Shown here: piece by piece, positions 173 through 41,300 of the stretch
How the letters are laid out: every line of letters begins with the position of its first letter
Position numbering within the stretch: the first letter of the stretch is position 1
Virus record (IMG/VR): IMGVR_UViG_3300030098_007301
Coordinates: 32,001-96,000 of that record
Direction: 5' to 3' (one strand)
From: a virus
Length of the DNA stretch: 64,000 nucleotides
The notes under the pieces: model-generated
What the model saw: the letters and a program-made list of their open reading frames with translations, nothing else
Database searches by the model: none
What the model was told of the DNA's origin: nothing
Position numbers and translations under genes: made by a program

Positions 173-333
173 TAATGACGTATAGATCTAATAAAACATT
201 TTTTTAAATGTAGAGAGTGTAAAATACGCCAAAACTGAAAAGGGTTTTAGACGCTTCGGGGATCAGTGTCAAACTTTTTTTTAGTCGAACTTGACTTTTG
301 GGGCGTAAACTATTAATCAACAGTTTTTTAGAC

Positions 334-807
334 ATGGAAATAAACTATTCAAAACTGAATCCAAGCGCAAAAGCTCCATTCCAAGCTAATCCTTCTGATG
401 CTGGTTATGATCTTTTCTCAACTGAATACGTAACCATTGAGCCTTTTCAGAGAAAATTAGTCTCAACAGGGATAAATATTGAAATCCCTGATGGTTTTTA
501 TGGAAGAGTCGCCCCAAGAAGCGGTTTAGCGTGTAAAAAAGGTATAGACGTAATGGCTGGAGTAATTGATTCCGGTTATCGCGGCGAAATAAAAGTTTTA
601 TTGATAAATTTAAATTTCGAAGGATATAATCTTAAACCTAATGCTTTTGAAGCTATGTTTGGTTCACAGAATAAAATCACAATTAATCCCGGCGACAGGA
701 TAGCACAGCTCATTATTGAAAAATGCTACCAAGTCGAATGGAATGAGATGAAAACACTAGAAAATTCTAAAAGAGGTCAGGGCGGTTTCGGCAGCTCTGG
801 GGAATAA
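334..807 (+). CDS. dut: Trimeric dUTPase
   Basis: Motifs AGYDL, PRSGLA, GVIDSGYRGEI, GDRIAQL and RGQGGFGSSG; ATG at 334 preferred over TTG at 298. Confidence 0.97.
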   Translation: MEINYSKLNPSAKAPFQANPSDAGYDLFSTEYVTIEPFQRKLVSTGINIEIPDGFYGRVAPRSGLACKKGIDVMAGVIDSGYRGEIKVLLINLNFEGYNLKPNAFEAMFGSQNKITINPGDRIAQLIIEKCYQVEWNEMKTLENSKRGQGGFGSSGE

Positions 808-1109: not shown

Positions 1110-1466
1110 ATGTTAATGCCAACTGCATTTAGTAGGGGCTTGCTCGATTTTGCAACGCCGTTATTTGAAGAAATTGAACGTAGCCATAATTCGTATTTCA
1201 CGGAAGAGGATGGTAAATATATTTTTGAGGTAGAAATGCCCGGCTTTGCGAAAGAAGATGTTAAAGTCAACGTCGACACGTCAGGGCACCTCAACCTACA
1301 AGGTAAAACCACTCGAAGAGGAAAAGAGGTTAAGTTCGGCCAAACTTACCATATTCCAGAAAAGGCTGATGCTGCTACAGCGGATGCAAGCCTGAAAAAT
1401 GGCATATTTAGGTTGATATTGAAAAAGAAAAATAAGCACAAACCTAAACAAATACAAATAAAGTAG
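1110..1466 (+). CDS. Small heat-shock protein (Hsp20/alpha-crystallin)
   Basis: EVEMPGFAKEDVKV and ADASLKNGIFRL core motifs; C-terminal IxI motif (KQIQIK). Confidence 0.92.
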   Translation: MLMPTAFSRGLLDFATPLFEEIERSHNSYFTEEDGKYIFEVEMPGFAKEDVKVNVDTSGHLNLQGKTTRRGKEVKFGQTYHIPEKADAATADASLKNGIFRLILKKKNKHKPKQIQIK

Positions 1467-2313: not shown

Positions 2314-4743
2314 ATGGAAATAAAAGTAAAGAAGAGAAACGGAAAACTAGAAGAATTTGACGTAGAGAAGATAAATAAATGCGTTTATCGAGCCTGCGCT
2401 GGTATTGATGGTAACAACGTATCCGCAAGCGAGGTAATACTTGATGCGCAGTTACAACTTTACGATAAAATCACTACTAAAGAAATTGATGAAGCTTTAA
2501 TTTTGTCAGCGCGAGCAAAGATAGAAAAAGAACCTAATTATAGCAATGTCGCCGCCGCTTTAGCCGTAAACGCGCTTTATAAAGAAGTTTTTCGAGAAAG
2601 CGTTGACTCAGATACTTTTGATTTACAATATAAAAAATCTTTCGTGCAAGGAATTAAGAAATTAACTAAGAAAGAAATTTTAAACGAAAAGCTACTTAGT
2701 TATGATCTTAAAAAATTATCGGAAGCTCTAGTTCCTGATAGAGATCGCAAGTTTAAGTACCTCGGGCTACAAATTTTAATTGACAGATACTTTATTCGTA
2801 GCAATAATAAAATTATCGAGTCGCCTCAGGCTTTTTGGATGAGAATTGCCATGGGGTTAGCTTTAAATGAAAAAAATAAAGAAGAACGAGCAATTGAGTT
2901 TTATAACCTGTTTAGCAACCTGCTTTACACTCCTTCCACTCCTACATTATTTAATAGCGGAACTACTCACTCTCAATTAAGCTCATGTTACTTAAACACA
3001 TTCGATGATAGTATTGACGGAATCTTCGAAGGGGTCTGGCAAGAAGCGCGTAAGAGTAAATACGCTGGAGGTCTTGGCTTTGATGTTACTAATTTTAGGT
3101 CTTCTGGCGCTTTTATCAAAGGCACAAACGGGATTTCTGGAGGAATTGTCCCATGGCTCAAAATCTTCAACGATACACTTGTCGCGGTAAACCAAGGGGG
3201 CAAAAGACCCGGCGCTGGGTGCGCCTATCTAGAACCTTGGCACCTTGACTTTGAGGACTTTTTAAATCTTCGCCGAAACACTGGCGATGAAAGACTTCGG
3301 TGTCACGATATGAACACTGCGTCTTGGATTCCTGACCTTTTTATGAAGAAGGTTCAAGAAGATGGAGATTGGTACATGTTTTGCCCTTCTGACTCAAGAG
3401 ACCTGCATGAAGCCTTTGGGGATTGCTTTACCGCAGTCTACGAGCAGATGGTTGATAAAGCAGAAGTAGGAGAACTAAAAAATTTCCGCAAAGTAAAAGC
3501 TAAGGAGCTTTGGAAAAAAATGTTAAAGGTTTTATTCGAAACGTCCCATCCTTGGGTAACATTTAAAGACCCTTCTAATATTCGTTACAGCAACCAGCAC
3601 CAAGGAACTGTTCACTCCAGTAATCTTTGTACTGAGATTTTACTACATACAAAGCCTTCTGAATATAAAGATGGCGAAAAAATCAAAGTTGGAGAAACCG
3701 CTGTTTGTAACTTAGGAAGTGTTAATTTAAAAAATCATTTAATAAAAAGCGAAACAGGTAAATACTCTTTAAACAAAGAGTTGCTAGCTAACACTATTAA
3801 AACAGCTATCCGCCTTCTTGACAATGTTATAGACTTAAATTTTTATCCAACTAAAGAAGCTAGAAATGCTAATATGCAACACCGCCCTATCGGCCTAGGA
3901 ATGATGGCAACGCATGACGTACTACAATTAGTTGATATACAGTACGACTCGGACAAGGCGGTAAAATATATTGACGAGCTCACAGAGTTCTTTTCTTATC
4001 ACGCCATTCTTTCGTCTAGCAAGTTAGCGCAGGAAAGAGGAAGCTATAAAACCTACGCCGGTTCTTTATGGGATAAAGGCAAACTGCCAATCGATACCTA
4101 TAACGACCTACTAGATTTTAGAAAAAAATCTTCGAAGACCCCCCGGGGGGGTAAAATTGATTGGTCGGAAGTAAGGGAAAGTATTTCGAAATATGGAATC
4201 AGAAATAGTAACACTATGGCAATTGCTCCTACTGCCACTATTGGTTATATCAACGGCGTGGAGCAAAGCGTCGAGCCGAACTTCTCGGTCCTCTTCGTCT
4301 ATGAAAACAAAAGCGGAAACTTCTACATCACGAACGAACAATTCGTCAACGACATGAAAAAAGAGGGCATTTGGAGTCCTCAATTCGCTGAAGCCGTTAA
4401 AGAAGTAGATGGAGACGTGACCCTTCTTGATATCCCAGAAAAATATAAAGAAAAGTATAAAACTGCTTTTGACCGCGATATGTTCAAATTAATTGAATGT
4501 AACGCCGCTAGACAAAAATGGATTGACCAAGGCGTTTCGTTTAATCTTTATAACAAAGGCACTAGTCTAAAATATTTAAATGATATTTATATGGCGGCAT
4601 GGGAAGCTGGACTAAAAACAACTTATTATTTACGTAATCGCGGTGCATCTAAGGTAGAGAAATCTACAAAAAAAGAATACACCAAGGAAGAGCAGATAGC
4701 CTGTTCCATCGCAAACCCTGAAGCATGCGAGGCCTGCCAGTAA
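2314..4743 (+). CDS. nrdA: Class I ribonucleotide reductase alpha subunit with N-terminal ATP cone
   Basis: VKKRNG ATP cone, TPTLFNSG, SSCYL, SNLCTEI, VCNLGS, APTATI, KTTYYLR and C-terminal CEACQ; no intein or intron. Confidence 0.97.
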   Translation: MEIKVKKRNGKLEEFDVEKINKCVYRACAGIDGNNVSASEVILDAQLQLYDKITTKEIDEALILSARAKIEKEPNYSNVAAALAVNALYKEVFRESVDSDTFDLQYKKSFVQGIKKLTKKEILNEKLLSYDLKKLSEALVPDRDRKFKYLGLQILIDRYFIRSNNKIIESPQAFWMRIAMGLALNEKNKEERAIEFYNLFSNLLYTPSTPTLFNSGTTHSQLSSCYLNTFDDSIDGIFEGVWQEARKSKYAGGLGFDVTNFRSSGAFIKGTNGISGGIVPWLKIFNDTLVAVNQGGKRPGAGCAYLEPWHLDFEDFLNLRRNTGDERLRCHDMNTASWIPDLFMKKVQEDGDWYMFCPSDSRDLHEAFGDCFTAVYEQMVDKAEVGELKNFRKVKAKELWKKMLKVLFETSHPWVTFKDPSNIRYSNQHQGTVHSSNLCTEILLHTKPSEYKDGEKIKVGETAVCNLGSVNLKNHLIKSETGKYSLNKELLANTIKTAIRLLDNVIDLNFYPTKEARNANMQHRPIGLGMMATHDVLQLVDIQYDSDKAVKYIDELTEFFSYHAILSSSKLAQERGSYKTYAGSLWDKGKLPIDTYNDLLDFRKKSSKTPRGGKIDWSEVRESISKYGIRNSNTMAIAPTATIGYINGVEQSVEPNFSVLFVYENKSGNFYITNEQFVNDMKKEGIWSPQFAEAVKEVDGDVTLLDIPEKYKEKYKTAFDRDMFKLIECNAARQKWIDQGVSFNLYNKGTSLKYLNDIYMAAWEAGLKTTYYLRNRGASKVEKSTKKEYTKEEQIACSIANPEACEACQ

Positions 4744-5504
4744 TGGATTATTCTAAAATAAATATTTTTTATCCCGTTATAGGTTATACGGGCATGGTTC
4801 ATTCTGACTACATGATGAGTACGATAAACCTCATGTCAGTGTGTCGGCAAAAAAATATAAAAATTGGCCTAAGATCTATATGGTTTGAGAGCTTAATTAG
4901 TAGAGCGCGGAACGCTTCGGTTGCTTTCATGCTTAACAAAGATTATACTCATTTATTTTTTGTTGATACTGATACCCAATTTGACCCGCATGACGTTTTA
5001 AAACTTCTAGACGCGGATGAGGACGTGACTGTTGGAGTCTACCCTAAAAAATATTTTAATGGGCAAAAGATAGAGTTGATGGCCTCTACTGGGAAGCTGC
5101 CTGAATACTGGAGGCATCTTGCAACTGATTTTTCCAGCGAAATCGACTTTGAAGAATTTAAAAAAGCAAAGTCTCAGGATAAAATAGAGGCGAAATATGC
5201 AGCCACCGGATTCATGTTGATAAAACGTGAATGTATAGAAAAAATAATTGCGGCTAAACCGGAAATAAAATACACTAACGATATTGACGGATACATGGAA
5301 GCTGGCGATAATTTTTACGATATATTTAGGTGTGAAGTAAACCCGGAGACAAAAAAGTACGAAAGTGAAGATTATGGTTTTTGCAAACTTTGGAAGTCAC
5401 TTGGCGGCAAAATAAATGTAATTACTGACATAAATCTTGGGCACCGAGGATTTAATACTTATTTAGGAAACTTAAAAGCTCAATCTCAATATTATACTAA
5501 ATGA
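4743..5504 (+). CDS. GT-A fold glycosyltransferase (GT2-like)
   Basis: SLISRARN, HLFFVDTD (DxD), ATGFMLIKR, SEDYGFC and LGH motifs; ATG overlaps the nrdA stop (TAATG). Confidence 0.85.
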   Translation: MDYSKINIFYPVIGYTGMVHSDYMMSTINLMSVCRQKNIKIGLRSIWFESLISRARNASVAFMLNKDYTHLFFVDTDTQFDPHDVLKLLDADEDVTVGVYPKKYFNGQKIELMASTGKLPEYWRHLATDFSSEIDFEEFKKAKSQDKIEAKYAATGFMLIKRECIEKIIAAKPEIKYTNDIDGYMEAGDNFYDIFRCEVNPETKKYESEDYGFCKLWKSLGGKINVITDINLGHRGFNTYLGNLKAQSQYYTK

Positions 5505-6517
5505 ACGACTCAAAAACTGGAAATATATTAGGAAAAGACGTAGCTGGGGTTAATTGCATTTTACCCCACAAACATAAAACCGCGTGGGACTTGTTTTTAA
5601 AAGGCTGCGCTAATAACTGGATGCCAACGGAGATATCAATGGCAGACGACATCAAACAATGGAAAAATGGAGACATAACAGATGATGAAAAACTTTTGGT
5701 TAAACGTTCGCTTGGCTTTTTTGCTGGCAGTGAATCTCTCGTTGGTAACAACCTTTTGCTTAGCGGCTTTAGGTATATTACTGATGCTGAATGTCGCCAG
5801 TATATTTTACGACAAGCGTTTGAGGAAAGCCTTCATAATCTTACTATTGTTTACGTTTGCGATTCTTTGGATCTTAAAATAGATGAAGTATATCAAGCTT
5901 ATTTAAATATTCCATCTATCAAGGCCAAAGATGACTTTCTAATGAGCATTACTACTGACCTAAGTAGGCCAGACTTTAATCCTTATACTCAAGAAGGCAA
6001 AAAAGAGATTTTAAGAAATTTCATTACCTATTGGATTGTCTGCGAAGGTATCTTTTTCTTTAGTGGATTTGCAATGCTGCTAGCCCTTGGTCGCCAAAAT
6101 AAAATGCAGGGCGTCGCTGACCAAATTAAATATACCCTCCGCGACGAAAGCTCTCATATTCAGTTCGGCACTTATGTTATTAATCAGATTATAGAGCAGA
6201 ATCCTAAAATCTGGACTAAATCGTTCCAGCAAGAAATAACTGAACATATACAAAAGGCTGTACAGCTTGAAATAGCATACGCTAAAGATGTATTACCTAG
6301 GGGGATTCTTGGTCTTAATGCTGAAATGTTTGTAGATTACATGCACTACATTGGCAATCGTAGGTTAGAAGGCGTTGGCCTTGAATATAGGTTTGAATCG
6401 GATAAAAATCCATTCCCTTGGCTCGGAGAAGTAGTTGACGTTCAAGCTATGGGTAACTTTTTTGAGCGCCGAGTAAGAGAATATCAACAATCTGGTTCCC
6501 TTGAGGATGACTTTTAA
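5501..6517 (+). CDS. nrdB: Class I RNR beta subunit, class Ic (R2c)-type signature
   Basis: NNWMPTE, FFAGSESLV, EESLH, EGIFFFSGF, RDESSH and NFFERRVREY; first metal ligand is Glu78 and the radical-Tyr position is Ile116. Confidence 0.95.
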   Translation: MNDSKTGNILGKDVAGVNCILPHKHKTAWDLFLKGCANNWMPTEISMADDIKQWKNGDITDDEKLLVKRSLGFFAGSESLVGNNLLLSGFRYITDAECRQYILRQAFEESLHNLTIVYVCDSLDLKIDEVYQAYLNIPSIKAKDDFLMSITTDLSRPDFNPYTQEGKKEILRNFITYWIVCEGIFFFSGFAMLLALGRQNKMQGVADQIKYTLRDESSHIQFGTYVINQIIEQNPKIWTKSFQQEITEHIQKAVQLEIAYAKDVLPRGILGLNAEMFVDYMHYIGNRRLEGVGLEYRFESDKNPFPWLGEVVDVQAMGNFFERRVREYQQSGSLEDDF

Positions 6518-7475: not shown

Positions 7476-8021
7476 ATGACGCAAAGAAATCTAGTAAATG
7501 ACATTCCGATCACAAAAGATGGATTTGCTCATGTAAGCTGCATCGTAGAAATCCCAAAAGGGACTAATACTAAATACGAATATAATGAAAATTATGATAT
7601 TTTTGAATTAGAGAGGTGCTTAGTTTCGTCCTTACAATACCCGATTAACTACGGACTCATAACTCAAACATTTGCCTTGGATAAAGATCCGTTAGACGTT
7701 TTAATATTTAATCACGACCCCATAGACAGGGGAAGTTTGGTCAGATGTAGGGTTTTGGGGGTTCTAGACTTTGTAGATAATGATGAAATAGATTACAAAG
7801 TTATAGCTGTGCCTCATTGGGCTCCAAAAAGCCGCTACCCAAGGCTAAATTCAATAGAGCCAGAACATCTTAAAATATTTAAGCAATTTTTTCGCATTTA
7901 CAAAATAGACAGAGCCAGCACTGTTAAAGTTGGCGAATGGAAAAACGGTAAAAAGGCTACAACGGTAGTTTTGGACGCTCACAATAGATGGCAAGAAAGA
8001 CAAAAAAATGGGAATGTTTGA
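7476..8021 (+). CDS. ppa: Family I soluble inorganic pyrophosphatase
   Basis: VEIPKG, KYEY, YPINYG, DKDPLDV, DNDEIDYKVIAV and YK motifs are all present. Confidence 0.93.
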   Translation: MTQRNLVNDIPITKDGFAHVSCIVEIPKGTNTKYEYNENYDIFELERCLVSSLQYPINYGLITQTFALDKDPLDVLIFNHDPIDRGSLVRCRVLGVLDFVDNDEIDYKVIAVPHWAPKSRYPRLNSIEPEHLKIFKQFFRIYKIDRASTVKVGEWKNGKKATTVVLDAHNRWQERQKNGNV

Positions 8022-9810: not shown

Positions 9811-10016
9811 AAATCCCTAAACATAATTTAATAGAGTTTGTTAACTTAGTTAACGAGTGCTGCGCTGTCATGGATCATGACTATGTAGGTGAGTGGATAA
9901 ATAAACCCAATCCAGATTTAAACATGGATACGCCCATGGATATATTTAATAATGAAGGAGCGGAGCGCATTTACAGGCTCCTTTATTTTATTGATATTGG
10001 AGAAGCAGACCTTTAG
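9807..10016 (+). CDS. Stand-alone Xre/MbcA/ParS C-terminal (toxin-binding) domain protein
   Basis: EWINKPNPDLNMDTPMDIF...GAERIYRLLYFIDIG matches the W..PN..L...P.d....G...v..lL..i..G pattern. Confidence 0.7.
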   Translation: MKIPKHNLIEFVNLVNECCAVMDHDYVGEWINKPNPDLNMDTPMDIFNNEGAERIYRLLYFIDIGEADL

Positions 10017-13000
10017 GGCTTAGGTACGCTATTTATTACCATTGTGCTTCCGTCTGGGAATTTAGTTCTAGTAACTAGGAACACAGTTCCATTCACTGTC
10101 TCTTCTATGGTATAGTTAACAGTTGCATCAGCGGTGGCCCTAGGCTCAGGGATGCCTTCTGGTATAACTTGATAATCTATAGCTTCTGGAGATAACAATA
10201 CTTCAAAAGATTTGTACGGGACTCCACTCTGAGTCAATCTAGGAGCACCCGTAGGACTAAGTCCAGTGTGGTAAACTGAAACCGAAGCTCCTGAACCATT
10301 TAAAGTTATAGAATTCATTCCTAAAACGTCTGGAGCCCCTACCTCCAACTCCGAAGAAGTCCCTGTAAAATTAACTGAAGCGCCCTGTTCTCCATTAGAA
10401 AATGTTATGTCTGTTATTTCGTCTAATTTATGTCCACTTAGACGAATACTAGTTCCCGGCGCCCCTCTTAGAGGGCCGTATCCTGTCACATAAAAACAAT
10501 CACCAGTATTTACGAAATCTCTAGCATAAGACGTTACTTTTTTATTAGTTATTTTATTTGCAAATTCATCTATTCCAGATTCAGGGAATTTAAAGTCATC
10601 ATAACCTAACACATTAAAAGAATTAACTGGCTCTAAATATGAACCTGTGTTTATTAAACTAAAATTCAATTCCGTATCCTTAAACCAAGGGTCTAATATA
10701 TATATCCTTCCCGACCCTAATAAATCAAGAGGAGATGTTAACTCTATTTCAGAATAAAAAGTATTAGCTACCCCTCCTATTGTAGCAAGACCTGTAGAAT
10801 ATTTATCTATAGGAATAGTTGATTGAATGAAACTGTTTTCAGTATTATCCATGCCTGAATCTGGAACATTTAATATAGAAACGCCAGAGAATGCCACGAG
10901 GCCTAACCCCGACCCCGACATTTCAGAATCGATCAACTGCTCGTCAAAAGTATTTATTCCTGTAACAGTAATTTTTGTTCCCTTTTCAACAAAGAAAGTA
11001 TTATCGTCAGACTTAGCCAAACCCCCGTCTATTCCTGTCACTACTCCTATTGGATAAAATCCACTAGCTTCTATTTGGTTTTGCCTCCCTGACAGTTTAA
11101 TATCCCCATGGTAAATACCAGTAGGGACTCGAACTGAAATTTTTTCTACCCCATTAGCTATCAAGCTCTCAACGTGCGGTTGCACAGTAACATGTCCTCC
11201 AGTAGGATAAGGAAAAAGCACGTCCATGCCAGTTATATTAAATCCAGTAACATCAATGCTTTCATTTGGTATCGCAAAATTATTAAATCCAGAAACTGAT
11301 ATTAAATTTATACCTGTTGAATTACTTTCAGTGAGGCGCCCAAAAGAATCTAAAAGCTGAAATTTTCCGCTCTCACCGTTTATCGACCCGGGGACATTAA
11401 ACCTTAAAGAGTTATACCTTTGAGAAGTAAAAGAATTAAAATCAAAATAATCCGATTCTCCCGAGAATCTAACTCCCGTGACTAAATCCATTCCAGCTCC
11501 GGATATAGTTATCTGATCGTTAGATTTAAAAACTTGAGAATAATCAATTATAGCCGGTTTTACTTCCCCGCTATAATATCCACTAATACTCGGCTTACTT
11601 GGGGCTACAGCCAGAAAACCTGTCGTTTCTAGTATGCCGCCACTAGTATTAACACTAATTGTGTTTGTTTGAGTGTTCTCAGGTACAACAAAATTAAAAC
11701 CTGTTGTAGAGTTTTGGTTTATTTGCGAGACTATAGTATCTCCTATTTTTAACCCATTAGAAACAATGTTCTCAAAATGTCCAGACATAGTGACGGTATC
11801 ACCAAACTCAACGGACTCTGGCTCAAATCCACTTAGGAATGGAGGAGTTAACGCTGTAATGTCTGCATCGCTATCGGTAAGATTGCTTCTGCCTCTCCTA
11901 TTCCTAGCCAAAACCTTGAAGTTAACGCCACTAGGAAAAGAGTCGGGGTATTGAAATTTAATTTGACTATGGTTAGTGTTATTATATCCGCTAGAGGGGA
12001 GCTTTTGAAAAAGCGCATAGCTTCCGAGTCCAGCACCCCCTGTCCACAGCTCGGCTCCTGCTCCGGTATACAAACAGGTCCCCAACATCAAACCCGTTCT
12101 TCCGGGTACTACCTCAGTATCGGGATCTATAGATGTTACAGTGGGAATACCAAAAGAAAAGAATCCATTGGTTCCAGTTACTGAGCCAAAATGCCCAGAT
12201 AACACAACGTCATAAGACTCTCCTAAAGTTCCAAGAGTAGCGGCATTCCCTATTTGAAAACTAAGCTCAAATCCCGGTGTAATCTCAGCTATATTTCCTG
12301 CGCTATATGTCCCTGCCCCAACATTAGAAGAAGCATTTAACAACATATTTACCCCAGTGATGCTGTATAAATTCTTACCACTAATAGTAACAAAATCTCC
12401 AACTACCCCAGATGATGGCGATATTCCATCTATAATAGGCAAACCTATAGTAGGCGTAAAATGGACATTAGAAGGATAAGACTCTGGATAATTATCTGAA
12501 AAGAAGCTAACGACTCCAGAAGATATAGTTGGGTCACTTGAAACGTTACCCCCAGACACCTGTATATTTATACCTGTAGGAATTAATCCTGAAGCGACTT
12601 TATCACTTAATAATTTAAACTCACCCGTTTCTCCCATTACCGTTCCAAGATAATTAGAGCCGGTTTCATATAAAATATCCCCAACAAAATTGTCCCCCGA
12701 GACTAATAAGAAAGTTCCTGTTGATCCCGCGGGTTTAGCAGAAGAAACTCCAACCTGAGAGAACCCTACTCCAGTAATCGTAGCTAAAGGAGAGAGCGCA
12801 AATTTTTGATCCATCTGAGTGAATTGCCCGCTCCTTAACAACAAATCAGCTTGACCCCTTATATTTCCAGATGGAATTTTCACGGTCGCTGTGTTAGCAG
12901 TCAATGTTACGCCTGATATCAAATCGTCATTACTAGCAAACCTTACTCCTGTAACGCCGCTTAAAGAAAACCCTGTTATAGACAAATCTTCACCGGAAGA

Positions 13001-13528
13001 TAATTGAAAAGAACTTAATCCTGACACTTCGGGTATAGGAACAAACTCATCCACGCTAAGCCCACTTGCTAGAGACTGGTTATTGTTTAGGCCCGTTCGC
13101 AGGGCAGAAAAAACTGTGACTCCATCGTAATCAGCATCTTGAGGAATTATAGCCTCAACTGTTTCCGAGTCTACCAAATTAAAGCTAGCTTCCACTTCCC
13201 CGAATTTAACATTCGTTATTTGGTAAAAGTTTTCGCCAGTGACTGAATATAGGCTTCCCGCCTTACCACTAATATTAGGAAGTTTTCCTACTGTTACTTG
13301 GTCATTCGAAGTTAAGATGATATATTTTTCACCTAAAGAAAATTGCCCATGAGAAGTAGACGCTATTACATCACTCGTAAAAGCGTTTATAGGAACTGTT
13401 CCTGAAACTCCCGTAGTGCCTACATATTGCAAATCCTCAACAAATATATCTCCAAATCTAAGGTCGTCGATCAAGTTCATGTTTTGACCTGATATTTCAA
13501 ACTTCGTATTTGGAGTTAAATATGCCAT
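10013..13528 (-). CDS. Virion protein with multiple IPT/TIG (Ig-like) repeats
   Basis: Repeats such as PIIDGISPSSGVVGDFVTISGKNL, PFLSGFEPESVEFGDTVTMSG and YVTGYGPLRGAPGTSIRLSG. Confidence 0.8.
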   Translation of the reverse strand: MAYLTPNTKFEISGQNMNLIDDLRFGDIFVEDLQYVGTTGVSGTVPINAFTSDVIASTSHGQFSLGEKYIILTSNDQVTVGKLPNISGKAGSLYSVTGENFYQITNVKFGEVEASFNLVDSETVEAIIPQDADYDGVTVFSALRTGLNNNQSLASGLSVDEFVPIPEVSGLSSFQLSSGEDLSITGFSLSGVTGVRFASNDDLISGVTLTANTATVKIPSGNIRGQADLLLRSGQFTQMDQKFALSPLATITGVGFSQVGVSSAKPAGSTGTFLLVSGDNFVGDILYETGSNYLGTVMGETGEFKLLSDKVASGLIPTGINIQVSGGNVSSDPTISSGVVSFFSDNYPESYPSNVHFTPTIGLPIIDGISPSSGVVGDFVTISGKNLYSITGVNMLLNASSNVGAGTYSAGNIAEITPGFELSFQIGNAATLGTLGESYDVVLSGHFGSVTGTNGFFSFGIPTVTSIDPDTEVVPGRTGLMLGTCLYTGAGAELWTGGAGLGSYALFQKLPSSGYNNTNHSQIKFQYPDSFPSGVNFKVLARNRRGRSNLTDSDADITALTPPFLSGFEPESVEFGDTVTMSGHFENIVSNGLKIGDTIVSQINQNSTTGFNFVVPENTQTNTISVNTSGGILETTGFLAVAPSKPSISGYYSGEVKPAIIDYSQVFKSNDQITISGAGMDLVTGVRFSGESDYFDFNSFTSQRYNSLRFNVPGSINGESGKFQLLDSFGRLTESNSTGINLISVSGFNNFAIPNESIDVTGFNITGMDVLFPYPTGGHVTVQPHVESLIANGVEKISVRVPTGIYHGDIKLSGRQNQIEASGFYPIGVVTGIDGGLAKSDDNTFFVEKGTKITVTGINTFDEQLIDSEMSGSGLGLVAFSGVSILNVPDSGMDNTENSFIQSTIPIDKYSTGLATIGGVANTFYSEIELTSPLDLLGSGRIYILDPWFKDTELNFSLINTGSYLEPVNSFNVLGYDDFKFPESGIDEFANKITNKKVTSYARDFVNTGDCFYVTGYGPLRGAPGTSIRLSGHKLDEITDITFSNGEQGASVNFTGTSSELEVGAPDVLGMNSITLNGSGASVSVYHTGLSPTGAPRLTQSGVPYKSFEVLLSPEAIDYQVIPEGIPEPRATADATVNYTIEETVNGTVFLVTRTKFPDGSTMVINSVPKP

Positions 13529-16820: not shown

Positions 16821-18035
16821 ATGAATAAAGATCAAGCTCAATCATCAATTAAATCTTTAGCTTTTGAGTTATCAAACTTAACTCCATCAGCGATGGTCAC
16901 TTTATTTGAAATAGATTTATCTGATGTCTTAGATGCCAACTCTATTCCAACTTTAGCCGACGAAGCTTCCGCTATAGGCTTTCCTGATGCGGTTGATAGA
17001 GTATTAAGATTTCACAACAATATTAAAGTATTTAATTCTAAAATTACTTGGAATGGCAATGACTATTACCCTGTTCCTATTCAAGCTACGGGCTTTGAGA
17101 CTTCTAGCAAAGGGACGCTTCCCACCCCTGTCCTAACTATTGCAAGTCAAACCGAAGAAGGTGTCACAATGTTGTCTCTCTTAAAACACCACATTTTAAA
17201 GTATGGAGATATAATTGGAAGCAAGGTTACCCGCAGAAGAACTTTTGCTAAATATTTAGACTGGGTGAACTTTGAATTCGCCACGCAGTCTCCAGCTAAA
17301 AGAGCCTTCTCCCCTCGTATTCAAGAACTACCTGCAGGATACGAACCCGACCCTAATGCGGAACTACCAAAAGATGTTTATTTTATAGAGAGAAAAACGG
17401 GCGAAAATAAAAACACTATACAATATCAATTATCTTCTATTTTAGATTTAGAAGGAGTAAAGATTCCTCGTAGGGTAATAGTAGCCGACAAGTGCAATTG
17501 GCAATACCGCGGTCCGGGCTGTTGGTACCAACACATTGATGAAAGTGAAATTAACTCGTCAGGGAACGCTATCGAGCAAGTCCCTGTTCTACAAAAAGCC
17601 GAGTTAACTACAAAAGAATTCACTCTTCCTAAAGACGCCCCACCTGTCGCTAATGACAAAGACGAATCTATAGTTGGCATCATTGATCATAACGAAGCAA
17701 TCCTAACATCTAATAGAACAGAATGGAAAGCAGACACTACTTATAACAAAGGCGACTATGTTTACATTTTAAAAGATAAAATTAAATATTATTTTGTGGC
17801 AAAAGTTAACATAACCGACGAAGAACAAAACAGGAACAATCCCCCACCTAACACTAATTATTGGGTCGCTGATGTTTGCTCTAAAACTTTAGGCGGGTGT
17901 AGGTTAAGATGGGGAGCAGACAACCCCGGGGCTGCTCCGGGGGCATGCCAAATCGGAGGCCCAGTAACTAATGGAAAAGGAGGCCTGCCTTTTGGAGGAT
18001 TTCCGGCCGCTAGAAAAGTAGCAGGAGGCAGATAA
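16821..18035 (+). CDS. Lambda gpL-like tail tip protein
   Basis: LFEID, YYPVPIQATGFE, KVTRRRTFAKYLD; Cys set CNWQYRGPGC ... DVCSKTLGGCRLR (Fe-S type); LPFGGFP. Confidence 0.92.
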   Translation: MNKDQAQSSIKSLAFELSNLTPSAMVTLFEIDLSDVLDANSIPTLADEASAIGFPDAVDRVLRFHNNIKVFNSKITWNGNDYYPVPIQATGFETSSKGTLPTPVLTIASQTEEGVTMLSLLKHHILKYGDIIGSKVTRRRTFAKYLDWVNFEFATQSPAKRAFSPRIQELPAGYEPDPNAELPKDVYFIERKTGENKNTIQYQLSSILDLEGVKIPRRVIVADKCNWQYRGPGCWYQHIDESEINSSGNAIEQVPVLQKAELTTKEFTLPKDAPPVANDKDESIVGIIDHNEAILTSNRTEWKADTTYNKGDYVYILKDKIKYYFVAKVNITDEEQNRNNPPPNTNYWVADVCSKTLGGCRLRWGADNPGAAPGACQIGGPVTNGKGGLPFGGFPAARKVAGGR

Positions 18036-19520: not shown

Positions 19521-22500
19521 ATGGGAGGATTTGGCGGAGGTGACGAAAGACAGGCTCGGCAAGTAGTAACCGACCAAAGAGGCGTACAATCTGGCGACGC
19601 GCCTAATGAATTAGTTGTATTAGATTCCGACGCGGAGATTATAGATCTGCTAGGAGAAGGGCCTATAGAAGGCATAGTAAGCGGTGTCTATAGTTTTAGC
19701 GGGATAGCTGGATATACTGGATATTTTACGGGCGAAACCTTTACTGCTTATACAGCCACTGGACTGGATGGAAATGGGTCTCCAAGCAGCTCCCCCCAAA
19801 CTACGCTTGGATTTTTAAGGTCTATATATTGGAATAATACTCCCATTGTGGATCAAAATGGATATTATAATTTTACTAACATAAATCTAGAATACTCTAA
19901 AGGCCTACCTGAAGGAAATTTAGCTCAATTAAATAGTAGGCTACCAGCAAGCGAGACTCTAGACTTAACGGTAGAGAGGCAAATCGGTGAGAGGCTTTAC
20001 GGGGTATCAATACAAGGTGGAACAGTTCCATCTGCCACTCAAACCGCAGGGGATTTGGCTGACGACTCAAGAATAGACACTGTAGCTAAAACTTATAGCA
20101 TATTAAATAACGAGTGCACTAAAGCTCAGTTAAGAGTAAGAGTTAGTCAATTATTTGAACAAATTAGAAGCGAGGATGCTCCCAAAGACTTCAAAAAAGG
20201 CAAAAATCCTCCAGCTGTGGGGTATGGAGATATCAAAGCTCGTGAGATAACTTACAATATATATTATCAACCTATTTTTGATTTTTATTCTGATGAAATA
20301 AATGGAGAGCATCCGAAAAACAATTCTTGGACTTTTTTCAAAACTGAAACAATACAAGGACATATAGATCAAATTTATGTTAGATCAACTACTATTGATT
20401 TCTCGGCCGACTACGTAGATCAACCCGGATTCGCAGGTTGGAAAATAAAAGTTATAAGGACTACTCCTGAGTCTTTAACGGCTTATTTAAAAAATGTTTC
20501 TTTTATTGATTCTATAGTAGAAATTTATGGCACGAAACTCCGTTATCCTTATAGCGTTATGGTTTATTCCAAGTTTGATGCTGAATTTTTTAGTCGAGTT
20601 CCGGAAAGATCATACGACACAAAACTGATAAAAGTTAAAATTCCCAATAACTATAACCCAATTTTAAAAACATACGGCAGAAGTGATGCTATTGTTGTTG
20701 GTAATTGGCCTACCGTAACTATAAATACCCAATTAAAAAAAGGTCAGTTAGTATATTTTCGAGGAGGGCAAATTTTAGAAATAGGCGTTGACTACCCAGT
20801 AGGAACTGGAACAATTACTAATGCCAGTACATGGATTAGAGATGGTTGGCAAACTGCATGGGGAGGCTCAGCAATTCTAACGAGTCAAAATAAAGGCCAA
20901 AGACGATACCCTGACGTTACAGGGGAAGTAGGAGCTACAACAGAAGGATGGCTTGGAGTAATCAATGGGCAGAATCATATGGGAACTGCTCCGGATAATT
21001 ACTGGGATGGAGGTTTTAAGGAAATTGAGAGTTGGCAAGCCGGAGCAGATGCCCCAATACCCGGGGCGGGCTCTATAATTGAAAAAAGATGGACAGACAA
21101 CCCAGCTTGGTGTTTTTACGATTTAATCACAAACCCTCGTTATGGGTTGGGGGATTTTGTAGATTCTAGTTTTGTAGATAAATGGGCTTTATATGAAATA
21201 GCTCAATATTGCGACGGGTTAGTTCCAGATGGAGCAGGAGGAGTTGAACCGAGGTTCACAATGAATCACATAATTACTTCTCGCGAGGAAGCTTATAAAG
21301 TTATAAATGATTTGTCTTCTATATTTAGAGGCATTGTCTATTATGCTAACGGGCTAGTATATGCTGTCCAAGATGCATTCAAGACCGCTCTTTACCAATT
21401 CAATAATGCTAATGTAGTAAACGGCGATTTTAACTATTCTTCTTCTGCTAAAAAAGCTCGCCATAGCGTCGCTGTTATTCGTTATATTGATAAATTTAAT
21501 CTTTATAACCCAAGCGTAGAGTACGTAGAAAACGAGGAATCCGTAAAAAGATATGGAATTAGACAAATAGAAACTACTGCGCTGGGGTGCACTAGTCGAG
21601 GTCAAGCTAGACGCTTTGGTGAATGGCTATTGGCTAGCGAGGCCCAAGAAACCGAAAGCGTTACCTTTAATGTAGGTCAGGACGGCGCTTACTTACGGCC
21701 CGGAGACATTGTTCAAATTTATGACCAATTTAGAACTCCTTTAAATTTTAGAGGTAGGACTAACGCTGTAACTCCTCTAGCTACGGCTCCTTCTAATATT
21801 ACTTATCCTTACCCAACGGCTGCAGGAACCGCACATCCCGTTACAGGTAATAGCGTTATTATTGATGGCCCAGTTTCTTTTACAAAAGAACAAGTCTATA
21901 AATTCTCATTGCTAACTCCAACTTACAATTATGAGTCTACTGGTATTACAAACTTAAATTCTGATGATGAAATAAGAAGAAGCAGTGTTCAGAATTTATA
22001 TTTCTTAGGTAACCATACTAGAACTATTTCTGGATACTATAACTCAGATTACCAAGAAGGCGGTAGCGGCATAGTTACGCAAATTTATTTTCACACAGGG
22101 CTAAGGCTCTCTGACGGGAATGCAATTGGAACGGGTAACCAACTTGATTTTGATAATTATGTCATCACCGGATATACAAATGAATACGTCAATGGATCAA
22201 CAGTTCAAGATTATTCAGGGGGCTGTTTTTCAGGCGCTAATCTAGTCTGGAGTGCGGAAGTTAATGATCCAGCAAGCGGCGAATACGTTAGCGGTCACTT
22301 TTCTAATTTTAGAATTATTAACGTAACTGAAAATGATGATTCCGCAAGTTATGCTATTTCAGCTTTAGCGTATTCAACAGGCAAATACGATGAAGTAGAA
22401 AATAGACTCGCTTTTGAAAATATAAGTATAGATGACGTCCCATTATGGCCGCATCAAGTGCATACTAGCGCTCCCAAAACTGGAGTTAATGAATTTGCCT

Positions 22501-25500
22501 CTATTATACTTGCTAGCCCTAACGATAACAATAAGGAACAAGAAAAACTGTTTGGACAATATTCAACTTTTGAAGTTAGGGTGCCTCAAGTCTCTACTCA
22601 ATTAAAAATTGGAACCGAACAAAAAGCTGGAGTTACCTCTCATTATATCAACACTAATGAAAAATATACTCTCCCTAAAAGGATGAGTTATCAGGTTTGT
22701 GTTTTTGAACAAGAAACTTTAGGGAACGGATTTGGCGATTCAAATCTAGCTTTAAGCAATACTTTATTTACAGTAGGAGGAGCTAAAGTCAATACTATTT
22801 TCCACGAGGTTTCTGATGCCAATTATAAAGAACTTTATAGGCCATACGCCCTCTATACGATGGATGGAGACCCAAGTAAAAAAGCTTCTAGCGACGGCTT
22901 TGCAAATGATCAAGTTGGATCAGATATAGGAGCCAGATTTTTCCTTGAAAGGCTTTTGACTAAAGATACTAACTATTGGTTTGCAGTTTTTGCATTTAAC
23001 AACTTCACCCGTTCTCGCCATGCTATTGTTGGCTTAATTTTAGGCTCTGACTACGTAGACACTAATAATTATTTTGCAAGTAATCCGAGCCTGTTAGAAA
23101 AAAATAAAATACCCAAAGAAGAAAATTTTAATCTTATTCAAGGTATTGATATAGAGAGTTTGACCTCTCCTGATTTACTTTCAGCAGCCGACAGTAGCAA
23201 AATTAATGACTTAAATGGGACAGAGCCAGTCTTCAATTGGAATACTAGTAACGAATTAGATTTTAGAGATGACTTTAATAAGCCGCTTCCTATGCCTGTT
23301 GGGCAACAATACCGTATTACTATAAGAAATAATGGAGGGGTCGCCCCATCGGACCACAATCCAGCTTCTAACATATTTGTGGAAATAACGGGGTATGACC
23401 AACCAGATACCGCTGCAGGGTTTGCGTTTATACATGAATACAACAGTCCTCATGTTATTTCTAATTTAGCTGACACCTTACTAACCAATAACGATGTAGT
23501 GGGTTATAAATTAGACGGCACTACGACGACTGACGGCAACAAGGCTACATGGTTAAGAGTAGATAAGAGTGGTATAATATTTAGAAATACTCCCAATAAT
23601 TTTCCATTAAGAGAATTTGATCTTGTTGTGGAAGCGCATGATGGGCTAGGCAGGACCAGCGCCGGAAACCAAATATGGAATAATACAATTAGAGGTGAAG
23701 ATACTAGCAACAACTATTCTGAAGACGATAAAGGCAAAGACGGATACGACTTTTTAAGTTGTAGTATAGGAATACCAAGTGGAGTTGTTTTTGCCCAGTA
23801 CGACAGATTCCCCGATCAAAATAGAGTAGATGATTATAGTTTTATAACGCAAGGCCAAGCTCACTTAAGGAAATACCCATATCTTGCAACCGCTGATGTT
23901 TATACTAACGGCGAACTGCATTTAAAGATGACTACTTCTCAAGATGCGGCCGGAAATACAATATTAACTGAAGAAGAATTAAGAAATGCATTTCCAGATG
24001 TCAGAGGCTTGGTCTATTATTATTCTACCGGCGACAATTCGACTAAAGACTCTGAGGCTAAGAACGGGCTTGTTATTTTTGAACCCAATAATAAAGCTCC
24101 ATCCTTCACAATGCAGCCGGATGAAATAGCAGGATCAAAAAATTTCGGATTACAAGGTAATGTTAAATTTACTACAGACAGCTCTAATGGTAAATATCCA
24201 GACGCTTCATCGCCTGCGCTAACAGATGGCAATGCACCGGATAATGTAACAGTCTATAGATACTATCATCTTTTTGATTCCTCTACTAATCCTGCTAATA
24301 TTGTTATTCCGTTTCCTAAAATAGCAGCAAGCAATGTACAAAACATTTATCTTGCAGTTGGATTATTTGATACGCTTTCTTATTTAGAGCATTTTAATTC
24401 AGATAATACGCCAAAAACAAAAACAGTAACTCCGGGCAATACGGCTAAAACTACTACAACTATGGATATACCGGGAGTCACAATAGCTTTTGATGGCAGT
24501 CGACAAGAGGTGAGTCAAGTTGTTCCTACTATACTATTAGAGCAAAAGATTAATTTTTCTACTTATCCTACAAAAATCTGGGATGAAAATGATAACGACA
24601 AACCTGTTGAGTGGACTTATCCTAACTCTAATTTTGCTGCCGCAAAGGGAACCCCAATTTTCCTCAAAGAGAGCAGTCTTCAAACTAAAGGCCAGTCAGC
24701 TTTAGCTTTTAGAGCTTGGTGGGATGTTACTCTCGACCCCGGAGAGGCTGGTCTTTTTATGGATTTCAGCGCTACATCAAATGGTACACCTGTATATAGA
24801 GGGCCTCATAAGAAGTTAGCAGCACCTAATTCTGATGGCGATTTAGTAGTGCAATACGTTAATAAAAATAAATTCAAAGGAATAGCTAAAATAGATTTCG
24901 AAGTCACGGATTCGTGGAAATACGGAAACAGTGGAAAGTTCCGCCAACTTGTCTCAGGGTTTTTAAAGATTTATTTCGCGCAAAAGCAAGAACAGGAAAA
25001 ATATACTGTTGATGTTGAGTTTAAACAAGCTAATAGCGTTACTTCTAAAGGAGAAATAGTTAAATTAACTGATGGCCAAAATGAAACCAACACGAATCCT
25101 AACGAAAGAGATTTCGTGACTAATGATTATCCACTTGAACAATGCAAGTTAGTAGAAAAATCCAGCGAATACGTTAAATTTTACCTGTCTCCCTTCTTTA
25201 TAAAAGGAACAGATAATAAACTTGCAAATAGAATGGACAATGGAGAGCTTTTCTGGCAAGTTAACTGGCAGCTTCTTGATAACGTCACGAAAATAAACAC
25301 AGGGACAGGTAGTACTGCTTATAATGCAGCACTAGCCGCCACAACAAAAGCCGGAACCGGGAAAAGAATATGGTTTAATGAACGTGAAAATGATCACTGT
25401 TGGTCCAACCCCCACAAAATCAAACAATATATACCCTTCCGCGAATTGGCGAATAACGAGTTTGTGAATGTGACACTCGTAGTAGATGCAGGAGACCTTG

Positions 25501-25862
25501 GCGGATATAGACGTCCTTGCAAATTAACTTTTAAATTAAATTCCGGTTTCTATAGTTCTAGCAACAACAGTTTAGTAAAAAAGGCTTGGCCGATAAATGG
25601 ATCTTTTAACATCTCCGTGCATAAATTCGTAGATGCCACTAGTACAGAATTTTATATAGCAAACAGCATAACAAGCAGGTACGGAACGCTAAATATAACC
25701 TACGGAAGCCCTAACAGCCCCCTTGACCCAGTTGGGTTAGAGAAAGACGTGGGAGAGGCTAAAGGAAGTATAAACGATAAGCGTACAAACTTTGCAGGCA
25801 ACATCATCAAAATAAAAGGCGGAATCCTACAAACTGATACTTTTGACGTTGTCCCTAGATAG
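19521..25862 (+). CDS. Lambda gpJ-like central tail tip / host-specificity protein (2113 aa)
   Basis: DLLGEGPIEG, WTDNPAWCFYDLITNPRYGLG, EPRFT, GCTSRGQARRFGEW and LRPGDIVQI. Confidence 0.93.
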   Translation: MGGFGGGDERQARQVVTDQRGVQSGDAPNELVVLDSDAEIIDLLGEGPIEGIVSGVYSFSGIAGYTGYFTGETFTAYTATGLDGNGSPSSSPQTTLGFLRSIYWNNTPIVDQNGYYNFTNINLEYSKGLPEGNLAQLNSRLPASETLDLTVERQIGERLYGVSIQGGTVPSATQTAGDLADDSRIDTVAKTYSILNNECTKAQLRVRVSQLFEQIRSEDAPKDFKKGKNPPAVGYGDIKAREITYNIYYQPIFDFYSDEINGEHPKNNSWTFFKTETIQGHIDQIYVRSTTIDFSADYVDQPGFAGWKIKVIRTTPESLTAYLKNVSFIDSIVEIYGTKLRYPYSVMVYSKFDAEFFSRVPERSYDTKLIKVKIPNNYNPILKTYGRSDAIVVGNWPTVTINTQLKKGQLVYFRGGQILEIGVDYPVGTGTITNASTWIRDGWQTAWGGSAILTSQNKGQRRYPDVTGEVGATTEGWLGVINGQNHMGTAPDNYWDGGFKEIESWQAGADAPIPGAGSIIEKRWTDNPAWCFYDLITNPRYGLGDFVDSSFVDKWALYEIAQYCDGLVPDGAGGVEPRFTMNHIITSREEAYKVINDLSSIFRGIVYYANGLVYAVQDAFKTALYQFNNANVVNGDFNYSSSAKKARHSVAVIRYIDKFNLYNPSVEYVENEESVKRYGIRQIETTALGCTSRGQARRFGEWLLASEAQETESVTFNVGQDGAYLRPGDIVQIYDQFRTPLNFRGRTNAVTPLATAPSNITYPYPTAAGTAHPVTGNSVIIDGPVSFTKEQVYKFSLLTPTYNYESTGITNLNSDDEIRRSSVQNLYFLGNHTRTISGYYNSDYQEGGSGIVTQIYFHTGLRLSDGNAIGTGNQLDFDNYVITGYTNEYVNGSTVQDYSGGCFSGANLVWSAEVNDPASGEYVSGHFSNFRIINVTENDDSASYAISALAYSTGKYDEVENRLAFENISIDDVPLWPHQVHTSAPKTGVNEFASIILASPNDNNKEQEKLFGQYSTFEVRVPQVSTQLKIGTEQKAGVTSHYINTNEKYTLPKRMSYQVCVFEQETLGNGFGDSNLALSNTLFTVGGAKVNTIFHEVSDANYKELYRPYALYTMDGDPSKKASSDGFANDQVGSDIGARFFLERLLTKDTNYWFAVFAFNNFTRSRHAIVGLILGSDYVDTNNYFASNPSLLEKNKIPKEENFNLIQGIDIESLTSPDLLSAADSSKINDLNGTEPVFNWNTSNELDFRDDFNKPLPMPVGQQYRITIRNNGGVAPSDHNPASNIFVEITGYDQPDTAAGFAFIHEYNSPHVISNLADTLLTNNDVVGYKLDGTTTTDGNKATWLRVDKSGIIFRNTPNNFPLREFDLVVEAHDGLGRTSAGNQIWNNTIRGEDTSNNYSEDDKGKDGYDFLSCSIGIPSGVVFAQYDRFPDQNRVDDYSFITQGQAHLRKYPYLATADVYTNGELHLKMTTSQDAAGNTILTEEELRNAFPDVRGLVYYYSTGDNSTKDSEAKNGLVIFEPNNKAPSFTMQPDEIAGSKNFGLQGNVKFTTDSSNGKYPDASSPALTDGNAPDNVTVYRYYHLFDSSTNPANIVIPFPKIAASNVQNIYLAVGLFDTLSYLEHFNSDNTPKTKTVTPGNTAKTTTTMDIPGVTIAFDGSRQEVSQVVPTILLEQKINFSTYPTKIWDENDNDKPVEWTYPNSNFAAAKGTPIFLKESSLQTKGQSALAFRAWWDVTLDPGEAGLFMDFSATSNGTPVYRGPHKKLAAPNSDGDLVVQYVNKNKFKGIAKIDFEVTDSWKYGNSGKFRQLVSGFLKIYFAQKQEQEKYTVDVEFKQANSVTSKGEIVKLTDGQNETNTNPNERDFVTNDYPLEQCKLVEKSSEYVKFYLSPFFIKGTDNKLANRMDNGELFWQVNWQLLDNVTKINTGTGSTAYNAALAATTKAGTGKRIWFNERENDHCWSNPHKIKQYIPFRELANNEFVNVTLVVDAGDLGGYRRPCKLTFKLNSGFYSSSNNSLVKKAWPINGSFNISVHKFVDATSTEFYIANSITSRYGTLNITYGSPNSPLDPVGLEKDVGEAKGSINDKRTNFAGNIIKIKGGILQTDTFDVVPR

Positions 25863-25877
25863 AGATATAATTAATAA

Positions 25878-26744
25878 ATGCATTCTACATCTTTTTCAGG
25901 GAGCATAAAGAACGGAAGTAAGGAACTCTATTCTTCTACTAATTTTATGGTAACAACACCAAACGGGTGTTACGTAAAAATTGGAAGAAACGAGGTCTTT
26001 TACCAAGTAGAATCATCGCGAACCTTACAATTAAAAAAGAAATTTAAATGTTATGGCGATCATATAATTTTAAAAGGAGACTATTCCGCTCAAATATCTG
26101 AAGGAGATTCAGCTAAATTATATTTCTCCGAAAAAGAATTAGTTTACGTTAGCGAAATAGTAAAAAACAAAAAAGATAGTGTTTTCGGCGAGATTTTCAC
26201 ATTAGAGGGAGGGAATTTATCCAGCTCCCAAAATAACCTAACAGGTTCGGCCGCTAAAATAAAAGTCACCGCGGTCAATAAAGAAAAAGAAATACAAGAA
26301 ACCTTAATATATGAAGGAGGAGGCTATTTAAATCCCCCCGAAAACCCCGTAACAGCAGTCAACGAATCAGGACAACGGATTCAATTAAATCTTGAGTTTG
26401 ATAACGCCGCCGAAAGCTCCTTATTTGAAAGAGACTTTAGACTAGTAGATTTTAAAGACGGCGAAACACGACTAGATATGTCTTACAATTTCCCTAAGCC
26501 TATAACTGAAGGGGAACTAATTTTATCTAAAAAAATTATAGTATTAGAAAGAGAATACTCAGGTAAGACAGTATTTAATGTACCGTGCCAAACCAGCTCA
26601 GATTTTTCGCCGATCAATAGCATCCCTCTAATGCCTCCCTATTGCGTAGCTCCTCATGCAATTTATAATAAAGCAATGGAAACAATAGATAAAAAGCTAC
26701 AAGAAATGAATCTTGAAATAGCTAAATTAAAACAGCGCCGTTAG
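25878..26744 (+). CDS. Hypothetical tail-associated protein (288 aa)
   Basis: Follows J; convergent with the TMP, with a 4-nt stop overlap. Confidence 0.7.
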   Translation: MHSTSFSGSIKNGSKELYSSTNFMVTTPNGCYVKIGRNEVFYQVESSRTLQLKKKFKCYGDHIILKGDYSAQISEGDSAKLYFSEKELVYVSEIVKNKKDSVFGEIFTLEGGNLSSSQNNLTGSAAKIKVTAVNKEKEIQETLIYEGGGYLNPPENPVTAVNESGQRIQLNLEFDNAAESSLFERDFRLVDFKDGETRLDMSYNFPKPITEGELILSKKIIVLEREYSGKTVFNVPCQTSSDFSPINSIPLMPPYCVAPHAIYNKAMETIDKKLQEMNLEIAKLKQRR

Positions 26745-41293: not shown

Positions 41294-41300
41294 ATTACAC
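41294..41300 (-). promoter_or_regulatory. GTGTAAT motif overlapping the last codon and stop of the fibre gene
   Basis: GTG TAA T, 10 nt before the start at 41283. Confidence 0.55.

Follow-up and report, generated by a model that had tools for sequence, protein, structure and literature searches.

A class Ic-like ribonucleotide reductase beta subunit with isoleucine at the radical tyrosine position in an uncultured marine phage

How fast a phage genome is replicated depends on the phage ribonucleotide reductase (RNR), whose cofactor couples phage fitness to the supply of trace metals. The window analyzed here, 64,000 nucleotides from the IMG/VR record IMGVR_UViG_3300030098_007301 (positions 32,001–96,000), belongs to a large, uncultured marine phage and encodes a class I beta subunit, NrdB, that carries isoleucine in place of the radical tyrosine (Table 1). 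The initial annotation assigned it to class Ic (R2c), with a Mn/Fe cofactor, and regarded the isoleucine as an unusual variant.

Table 1. Features of the 64,000-nucleotide window, with positions counted from its first letter
Feature	Position	Strand	Remarks
dUTPase	298–807	+	Flanks the RNR genes
Hsp20-family small heat-shock protein	1110–1466	+	Flanks the RNR genes
nrdA, class I RNR alpha subunit	2314–4743	+	809 aa; one N-terminal ATP-cone
ORF between nrdA and nrdB	4725–5504	+	259 aa; phrog_1574 (unknown function), E 7.2e-32
nrdB, RNR beta subunit, Tyr-less, Glu as first ligand (class Ic-like)	5501–6517	+	338 aa, stop-free translation
Trp40 codon TGG	5618–5620	+	C. trachomatis Trp51; radical relay
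Glu78 codon GAA, first metal ligand	5732–5734	+	Glu as in R2c, versus Asp in class Ia
Glu109-x-x-His112, metal ligands 2 and 3	5825–5836	+	Glu109 GAA 5825–5827; His112 CAT 5834–5836
Ile116 codon ATT, radical-Tyr position	5846–5848	+	E. coli Tyr122; C. trachomatis Phe127
Tyr118 codon	5852–5854	+	Aligns with C. trachomatis Tyr129; not the radical site
Glu182 codon, metal ligand 4	6044–6046	+	From alignment to C. trachomatis R2c
Glu216-x-x-His219, metal ligands 5 and 6	6146–6157	+	From alignment to C. trachomatis R2c
Tyr328 codon, C-terminal radical-transfer Tyr	6482–6484	+	C. trachomatis Tyr338
Inorganic pyrophosphatase	7476–8021	+	Flanks the RNR genes
Large ORF	10013–13528	-	1171 aa; no match in Pfam scan
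Lambda-L-type minor tail protein	16821–18035
Large ORF	19521–25862	+	2113 aa
Large ORF	26741–33487	-	2248 aa
Large ORF	41295–48302	-	2335 aa
Large ORF	48312–61031	-	4239 aa

NrdB belongs to the R2 family, with a match to the Pfam domain Ribonuc_red_sm at E 4.3e-77 and a score of 455.9 bits against the NCBIfam model NF005550 (cut-off 309). When the protein is compared with the sequences in the PDB using phmmer, the R2c of Chlamydia trachomatis is matched at E about 5e-112 (1SYY and 4D8F; 4.7e-112 for 1SYY) and 6Y2N at E 1e-108. The alignment with 1SYY is free of gaps over residues 14–219 of the phage protein, with a constant offset of 11, and pairs E78 with E89, E109 with E120, H112 with H123, I116 with F127 and Y118 with Y129 and, in the second half, E182 with E193, E216 with E227 and H219 with H230. 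Direct reading of the codons together with this alignment bore out the residue numbers, codon coordinates and offset given for Glu78 and Ile116 in the initial annotation, and its description of a virus-encoded class I beta subunit with both sequence hallmarks of class Ic, namely glutamate as the first ligand and, at the radical site, a residue that is redox-inert, holds. The E/H/E/E/H series that follows the first ligand is intact, and Ile116 lies four residues after His112. The radical-transfer set of class Ic is retained as well, in the form of W40 and Y328, which are invariant or nearly so, and a conserved acidic alpha-binding tail that follows Tyr328 and ends in SLEDDF; W40 and the Glu109-x-x-His112 motif are invariant in all 38 sequences of the alignment of NrdB with its relatives. 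The nrdB gene (5501–6517) contains no intein, and in the tetranucleotide ATGA, read directly from the codons, its ATG overlaps the stop codon TGA of the preceding ORF.

An AlphaFold model of NrdB, built from the 38-sequence alignment (pLDDT 87.1, pTM 0.86), is closest to the same proteins. The seven top structural matches are all R2c entries (Z 42.7–45.8), with the Mn/Fe NrdB of C. trachomatis in the lead (Z 45.5–45.8, rmsd 1.5–1.9 Å over 312–315 residues, 48–49% identity; the best are 4M1I and 4D8F, with Z about 45.8 and rmsd 1.7–1.9 Å over 314–315 residues), 1SYY and 2ANI at Z about 44 and 6Y2N at Z 42.7, compared with Z of at most 38 for class Ia structures and about 33 for class Id. In the model, residues 96–122 form a single helix that holds positions 112, 116 and 118; because these positions share one continuous helix, the residue four places after the histidine faces the cluster and the residue six places after it points elsewhere.

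Three other memberships were considered and rejected. Class Ia requires aspartate as the first ligand and tyrosine four residues after the histidine, and the phage protein has Glu78 and Ile116 at these positions. The class Id proteins (NrdBi of F. johnsoniae and L. blandensis; 6CWO, 6SF4 and 5OLK) are distant in sequence, with E values of only ~1e-11 to 1e-9, and in fold (Z ~33 versus 45.8), and the phage protein lacks tyrosine at the site, which class Id proteins retain. For R2lox, the best NCBIfam model reaches 65.8 bits where 194 would be needed to pass its cut-off, and Tyr328 and the C-terminal tail are present.

When representatives at 50% identity were searched exhaustively with HMMER and the radical-site residue was tallied by the first ligand, the representatives with aspartate had tyrosine (44) at the radical site, and those with glutamate had phenylalanine (25), valine (11), isoleucine (5), leucine (5) or tyrosine (6), so that isoleucine clusters are as numerous as leucine clusters among the glutamate-type representatives. 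Substitutions by leucine, isoleucine and valine in R2c have been documented (PMC3824934, citing Hogbom 2010). Among the 201 sequences of the viral clade to which NrdB belongs, position 116 is occupied by valine (122) or isoleucine (79) and nothing else, with ATT, ATA and ATC as the isoleucine codons and GTA, GTT and GTG as the valine codons. At least 18 changes between the two residues map to the clade tree, which was built with FastTree from an alignment that includes column 116 itself, one of ~340 columns. The qualification ‘unusual' thus has to be dropped, given the 79 isoleucine-bearing members, the repeated switches and the five separate 50%-identity clusters. Position 119 was also examined as a packing partner that might compensate for the residue at 116 (Ile/Val versus Val/Ile); independent pairs among the 201 sequences gave no signal of covariation.

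The same picture emerges from larger collections. Valine or isoleucine is present at the site in each of the 120 best matches (77–97% identity) from a collection of 5.8 billion proteins. In IMG/VR, 331 stretches match NrdB at up to 99% identity; the best 80 of these (82–99% identity) comprise 47 with valine and 33 with isoleucine and, without exception, have W40, all six metal ligands, Y118 and Y328. No close relatives were detected among cultured phages, the best matches in INPHARED being 47% and 42% identical, and a search for relatives at the DNA level returned only short nrdA matches. A cellular search of 185,579 prokaryotes, one genome per species, gave at least 596 matches, and the analysis covered the best 80, so that Val/Ile forms of cellular origin may exist among the others. 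The best of these 80, 74% identical, comes from a 44-kb MAG contig with a glycosyltransferase and ORFs of unknown function, possibly a viral contig; the others among these 80 are at most 52% identical and include 47 with glutamate and phenylalanine (Chlamydiota, Planctomycetota, Verrucomicrobiota and Actinomycetota) and 31 with aspartate and tyrosine, from Pseudomonadota. Phage NrdB is ~50% identical to the characterized R2c proteins of Chlamydiota and Actinomycetota and equally so to Asp/Tyr class Ia proteins, so that the assignment to class Ic rests on the two diagnostic residues.

In a maximum likelihood tree of 74 rows (LG+G4), in which the deep nodes are weak, the phage clade (99/98) is nested in a group of 20 rows that all have valine or isoleucine (100/97). 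The Glu/Phe sequences form two groups separate from this one, a Chlamydia-type group (100/99) and an actinobacterial group (100/100); phage NrdB is not nested within the R2c groups of Chlamydiota/Planctomycetota or of Actinomycetota. An earlier quick tree, which included paralogues with degenerate ligands, was set aside as unreliable. The AU test rejects an exclusive grouping of the Val/Ile sequences with both characterized-type R2c groups (p-AU 0.0016), for a grouping chosen after the tree had been seen, and all Tyr-less rows as a single clade are compatible with the data (p-AU 0.265), so that, judged from these sequences, tyrosine may have been lost from the site only once or absent from the start in one lineage. 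The deeper members of the Val/Ile group include an isoleucine-bearing protein that is 54% identical to NrdB and lies in a phage-like context, with an intein-bearing nrdA, an RNA ligase, DHFR and thymidylate synthase.

The dN/dS of NrdB against its relatives is 0.008–0.035, that is, nrdB is under strong purifying selection. The five CheckV-complete genomes of the clade (170–206 kb) each have exactly one match to PF00268 and one to PF02867; with one beta and one alpha match per complete genome and the low dN/dS, the Tyr-less protein appears to be the working beta subunit. In several genomes with valine at the site (L033, L034 and L044 in G002, G003 and G004, respectively), nrdA and nrdB are not adjacent and lie 15–48 kb apart.

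The partner subunit is encoded two genes upstream in the window. NrdA contains the Pfam domains ATP-cone, Ribonuc_red_lgN and Ribonuc_red_lgC (E 3.6e-175), scores 1017 bits against NCBIfam NF005544 (cut-off 965) and has the NrdA of Pseudomonas aeruginosa as its best PDB match (5IM3, E 3.8e-238). The motifs SSCYL, NLCTE, CNLGS and TTYYLR and the C-terminal CEAC are all found, with the catalytic Cys/Asn/Glu motif, the Tyr-Tyr pair and the C-terminal cysteine pair among them. According to Burnim et al. (2022), the NrdA of C. trachomatis has three ATP-cones and that of P. aeruginosa has two; the phage protein has a single one.

The ORF between nrdA and nrdB overlaps the end of the former (stop at 4743) and the start of the latter and is therefore probably co-transcribed with them. 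It has a DTD motif and resembles the Pfam family Glycos_transf_2 at E 0.007 only, below the cut-off; searches of the PDB and NCBIfam with it gave no match. It is kept in a relative with 97% identity (L001), is not found between nrdA and nrdB in two relatives with valine at the site (L002 and L003), and is unrelated to the ORF in the same position in Pseudomonas phage Peetri. A role as an RNR accessory protein or metallochaperone was rejected on the grounds of the weak GT2 likeness and of this lack of conservation in the Val-type relatives; judging by its sequence, the ORF may encode a phage glycosyltransferase carried in the nucleotide-metabolism operon. The dUTPase, Hsp20 and pyrophosphatase genes make up a nucleotide-metabolism module together with the RNR genes, and the module is syntenic in the 97% relative. 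The five very large ORFs elsewhere in the window presumably encode fiber or structural proteins.

With the characterized R2c proteins as analogues, these observations suggest that NrdB is probably a functional beta subunit that lacks a radical tyrosine and stores its oxidant in the dimetal centre, which by analogy would be Mn(IV)/Fe(III). NrdB would be the only class I beta subunit of the phage, working with the NrdA encoded upstream. Because the radical site has no tyrosine, the one-electron oxidant would most likely be held on the dimetal cluster, with the two metals bound by Glu78, Glu109, His112, Glu182, Glu216 and His219. From there, the oxidizing equivalent would travel via Trp40 and then Tyr328, close to the C terminus, to the Tyr-Tyr pair of NrdA and on to the cysteine of its NLCTE motif, and Ile116 would act as a redox-inert packing residue, a part that valine would play equally well in the sister phages. 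By analogy with Mn/Fe enzymes, the phage enzyme might also withstand radical scavengers and save iron, as suggested in the initial annotation. With the R2c of C. trachomatis (1SYY, 4D8F, 4D8G, 4M1H and 4M1I) and 6Y2N, NrdB shares the E/E/H/E/E/H ligands, an inert residue at the radical site, the relay tryptophan and the C-terminal tyrosine; the phage protein differs in having isoleucine for phenylalanine, and the identity is 48–50%.

It is possible, if rather unlikely, that NrdB is a functional Tyr-less beta subunit whose cofactor is unlike that of the Chlamydia R2c, such as Mn2(IV/III) or Fe2, and that it represents an undescribed marine-phage subclass of class I. The Val/Ile group indeed forms a branch of its own, without any characterized protein, the viral group has been set apart under the name ‘Ic-like' in the literature (PMC12918982), and the occurrence of only the β-branched valine and isoleucine in 201 sequences, never phenylalanine or leucine, hints at a different requirement of the pocket. 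However, R2c has exactly the same ligands, one Tyr-less origin shared with true R2c is compatible with the AU test, and class Id lies far away both in sequence (PDB matches at about 1e-11) and in fold (Z about 33 versus 45.8) and retains the tyrosine. The stronger version of this idea, namely that the Val/Ile lineage is not Mn/Fe class Ic at all but a separate, undescribed subclass with, for example, a homobimetallic high-valent cluster, and that the β-branched residue is functionally required, appears doubtful. The reading of NrdB as a Tyr-less subunit with an R2c-like cluster also has to be weighed against a tyrosyl radical in disguise. Tyr118, two residues past Ile116 and invariant in the clade, or a neighbouring tyrosine might bear such a radical next to a di-iron centre, which would make the protein a class Ia enzyme in effect. 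This is very improbable: the residue pairs, without gaps, with Tyr129 of the C. trachomatis R2c, a protein that has no tyrosyl radical, and its equivalent is also found beside the canonical radical tyrosine in the Asp/Tyr relatives (pattern D..Y-Y), which together argue against a shift of the radical site to Tyr118; furthermore, the 96–122 helix turns it away from the cluster, and the first ligand is glutamate, not aspartate. The refuting case named in the initial annotation, an alignment with Tyr118 at the radical position, is therefore not borne out.

A role outside ribonucleotide reduction, as an R2lox-type oxidase or as an R2 paralogue that is inactive or has a regulatory task, has precedents, given that R2 homologues without the tyrosine and with other roles exist, R2lox being one, and that a ligand-less NrdB-like ORF accompanies nrdB in phage Peetri. 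Nevertheless, such a role for the protein encoded in the window seems extremely improbable, considering the R2lox scores far under the cut-off, the invariance of Tyr328 and of the acidic alpha-binding tail, the intact ligands, the dN/dS of about 0.01–0.03 and the status of sole beta subunit in complete genomes with one alpha subunit each.

The NrdB of phage Peetri (vB_PpuM-Peetri) belongs with the Pseudomonas-type class Ia proteins, which share with the phage NrdB described here the NF005550 family, ~44–50% identity, the tyrosine at the position equivalent to 118 and the same type of alpha subunit, but have the aspartate ligand and the radical tyrosine where the latter has glutamate and isoleucine. 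The Peetri genome (PP496444.1) also encodes, directly upstream of its Asp/Tyr nrdB, a ‘hypothetical protein' (L085:3225–4010) that is a degenerate NrdB-like paralogue, recognizable by BLASTP in an N-terminal stretch of some 100 residues (E 2e-6) and with metal ligands that can no longer be recognized.

The clade itself has already entered the literature. A bioRxiv preprint of February 2026 (PMC12918982) describes 269 viral populations from GOV 2.0 with beta subunits that lack the radical tyrosine and have "isoleucine or valine" instead, names the group "subclass Ic-like", finds the alpha subunits to be nearest to NrdAz and reports that the abundance of the group is anti-correlated with modelled iron; the search for beta subunits in that work looked first at proteins near the alpha subunit. 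The Tyr-less Ile/Val state is thus already published, and the window adds one more genome to this clade, without a substantive difference; isoleucine is an ordinary residue in what is an abundant viral clade. The preprint deals with ecology only, residue-level, structural and biochemical analysis being absent from it. Burnim et al. (2022) note that Ic-like sequences are numerous in NrdAz and NrdAq and that members of one subclade can differ in how the radical is generated. A beta subunit without the tyrosine that needed less iron, in abundant marine phages of 170–206 kb, would fit the reported anti-correlation with iron. Members of the Val/Ile lineage are frequent in ocean viromes, and the interest that remains in this lineage lies in the identity of the metals and in the chemistry.

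In the wider family, many R2c-like representatives (P0124, P0126, P0130–P0132 and P0134–P0136) have a length of 640–660 amino acids, and their match to NrdB is split into two parts near residue 217. The break falls inside the E216-x-x-H219 motif, a sequence pattern typical of an intein at the metal site in the long representatives.
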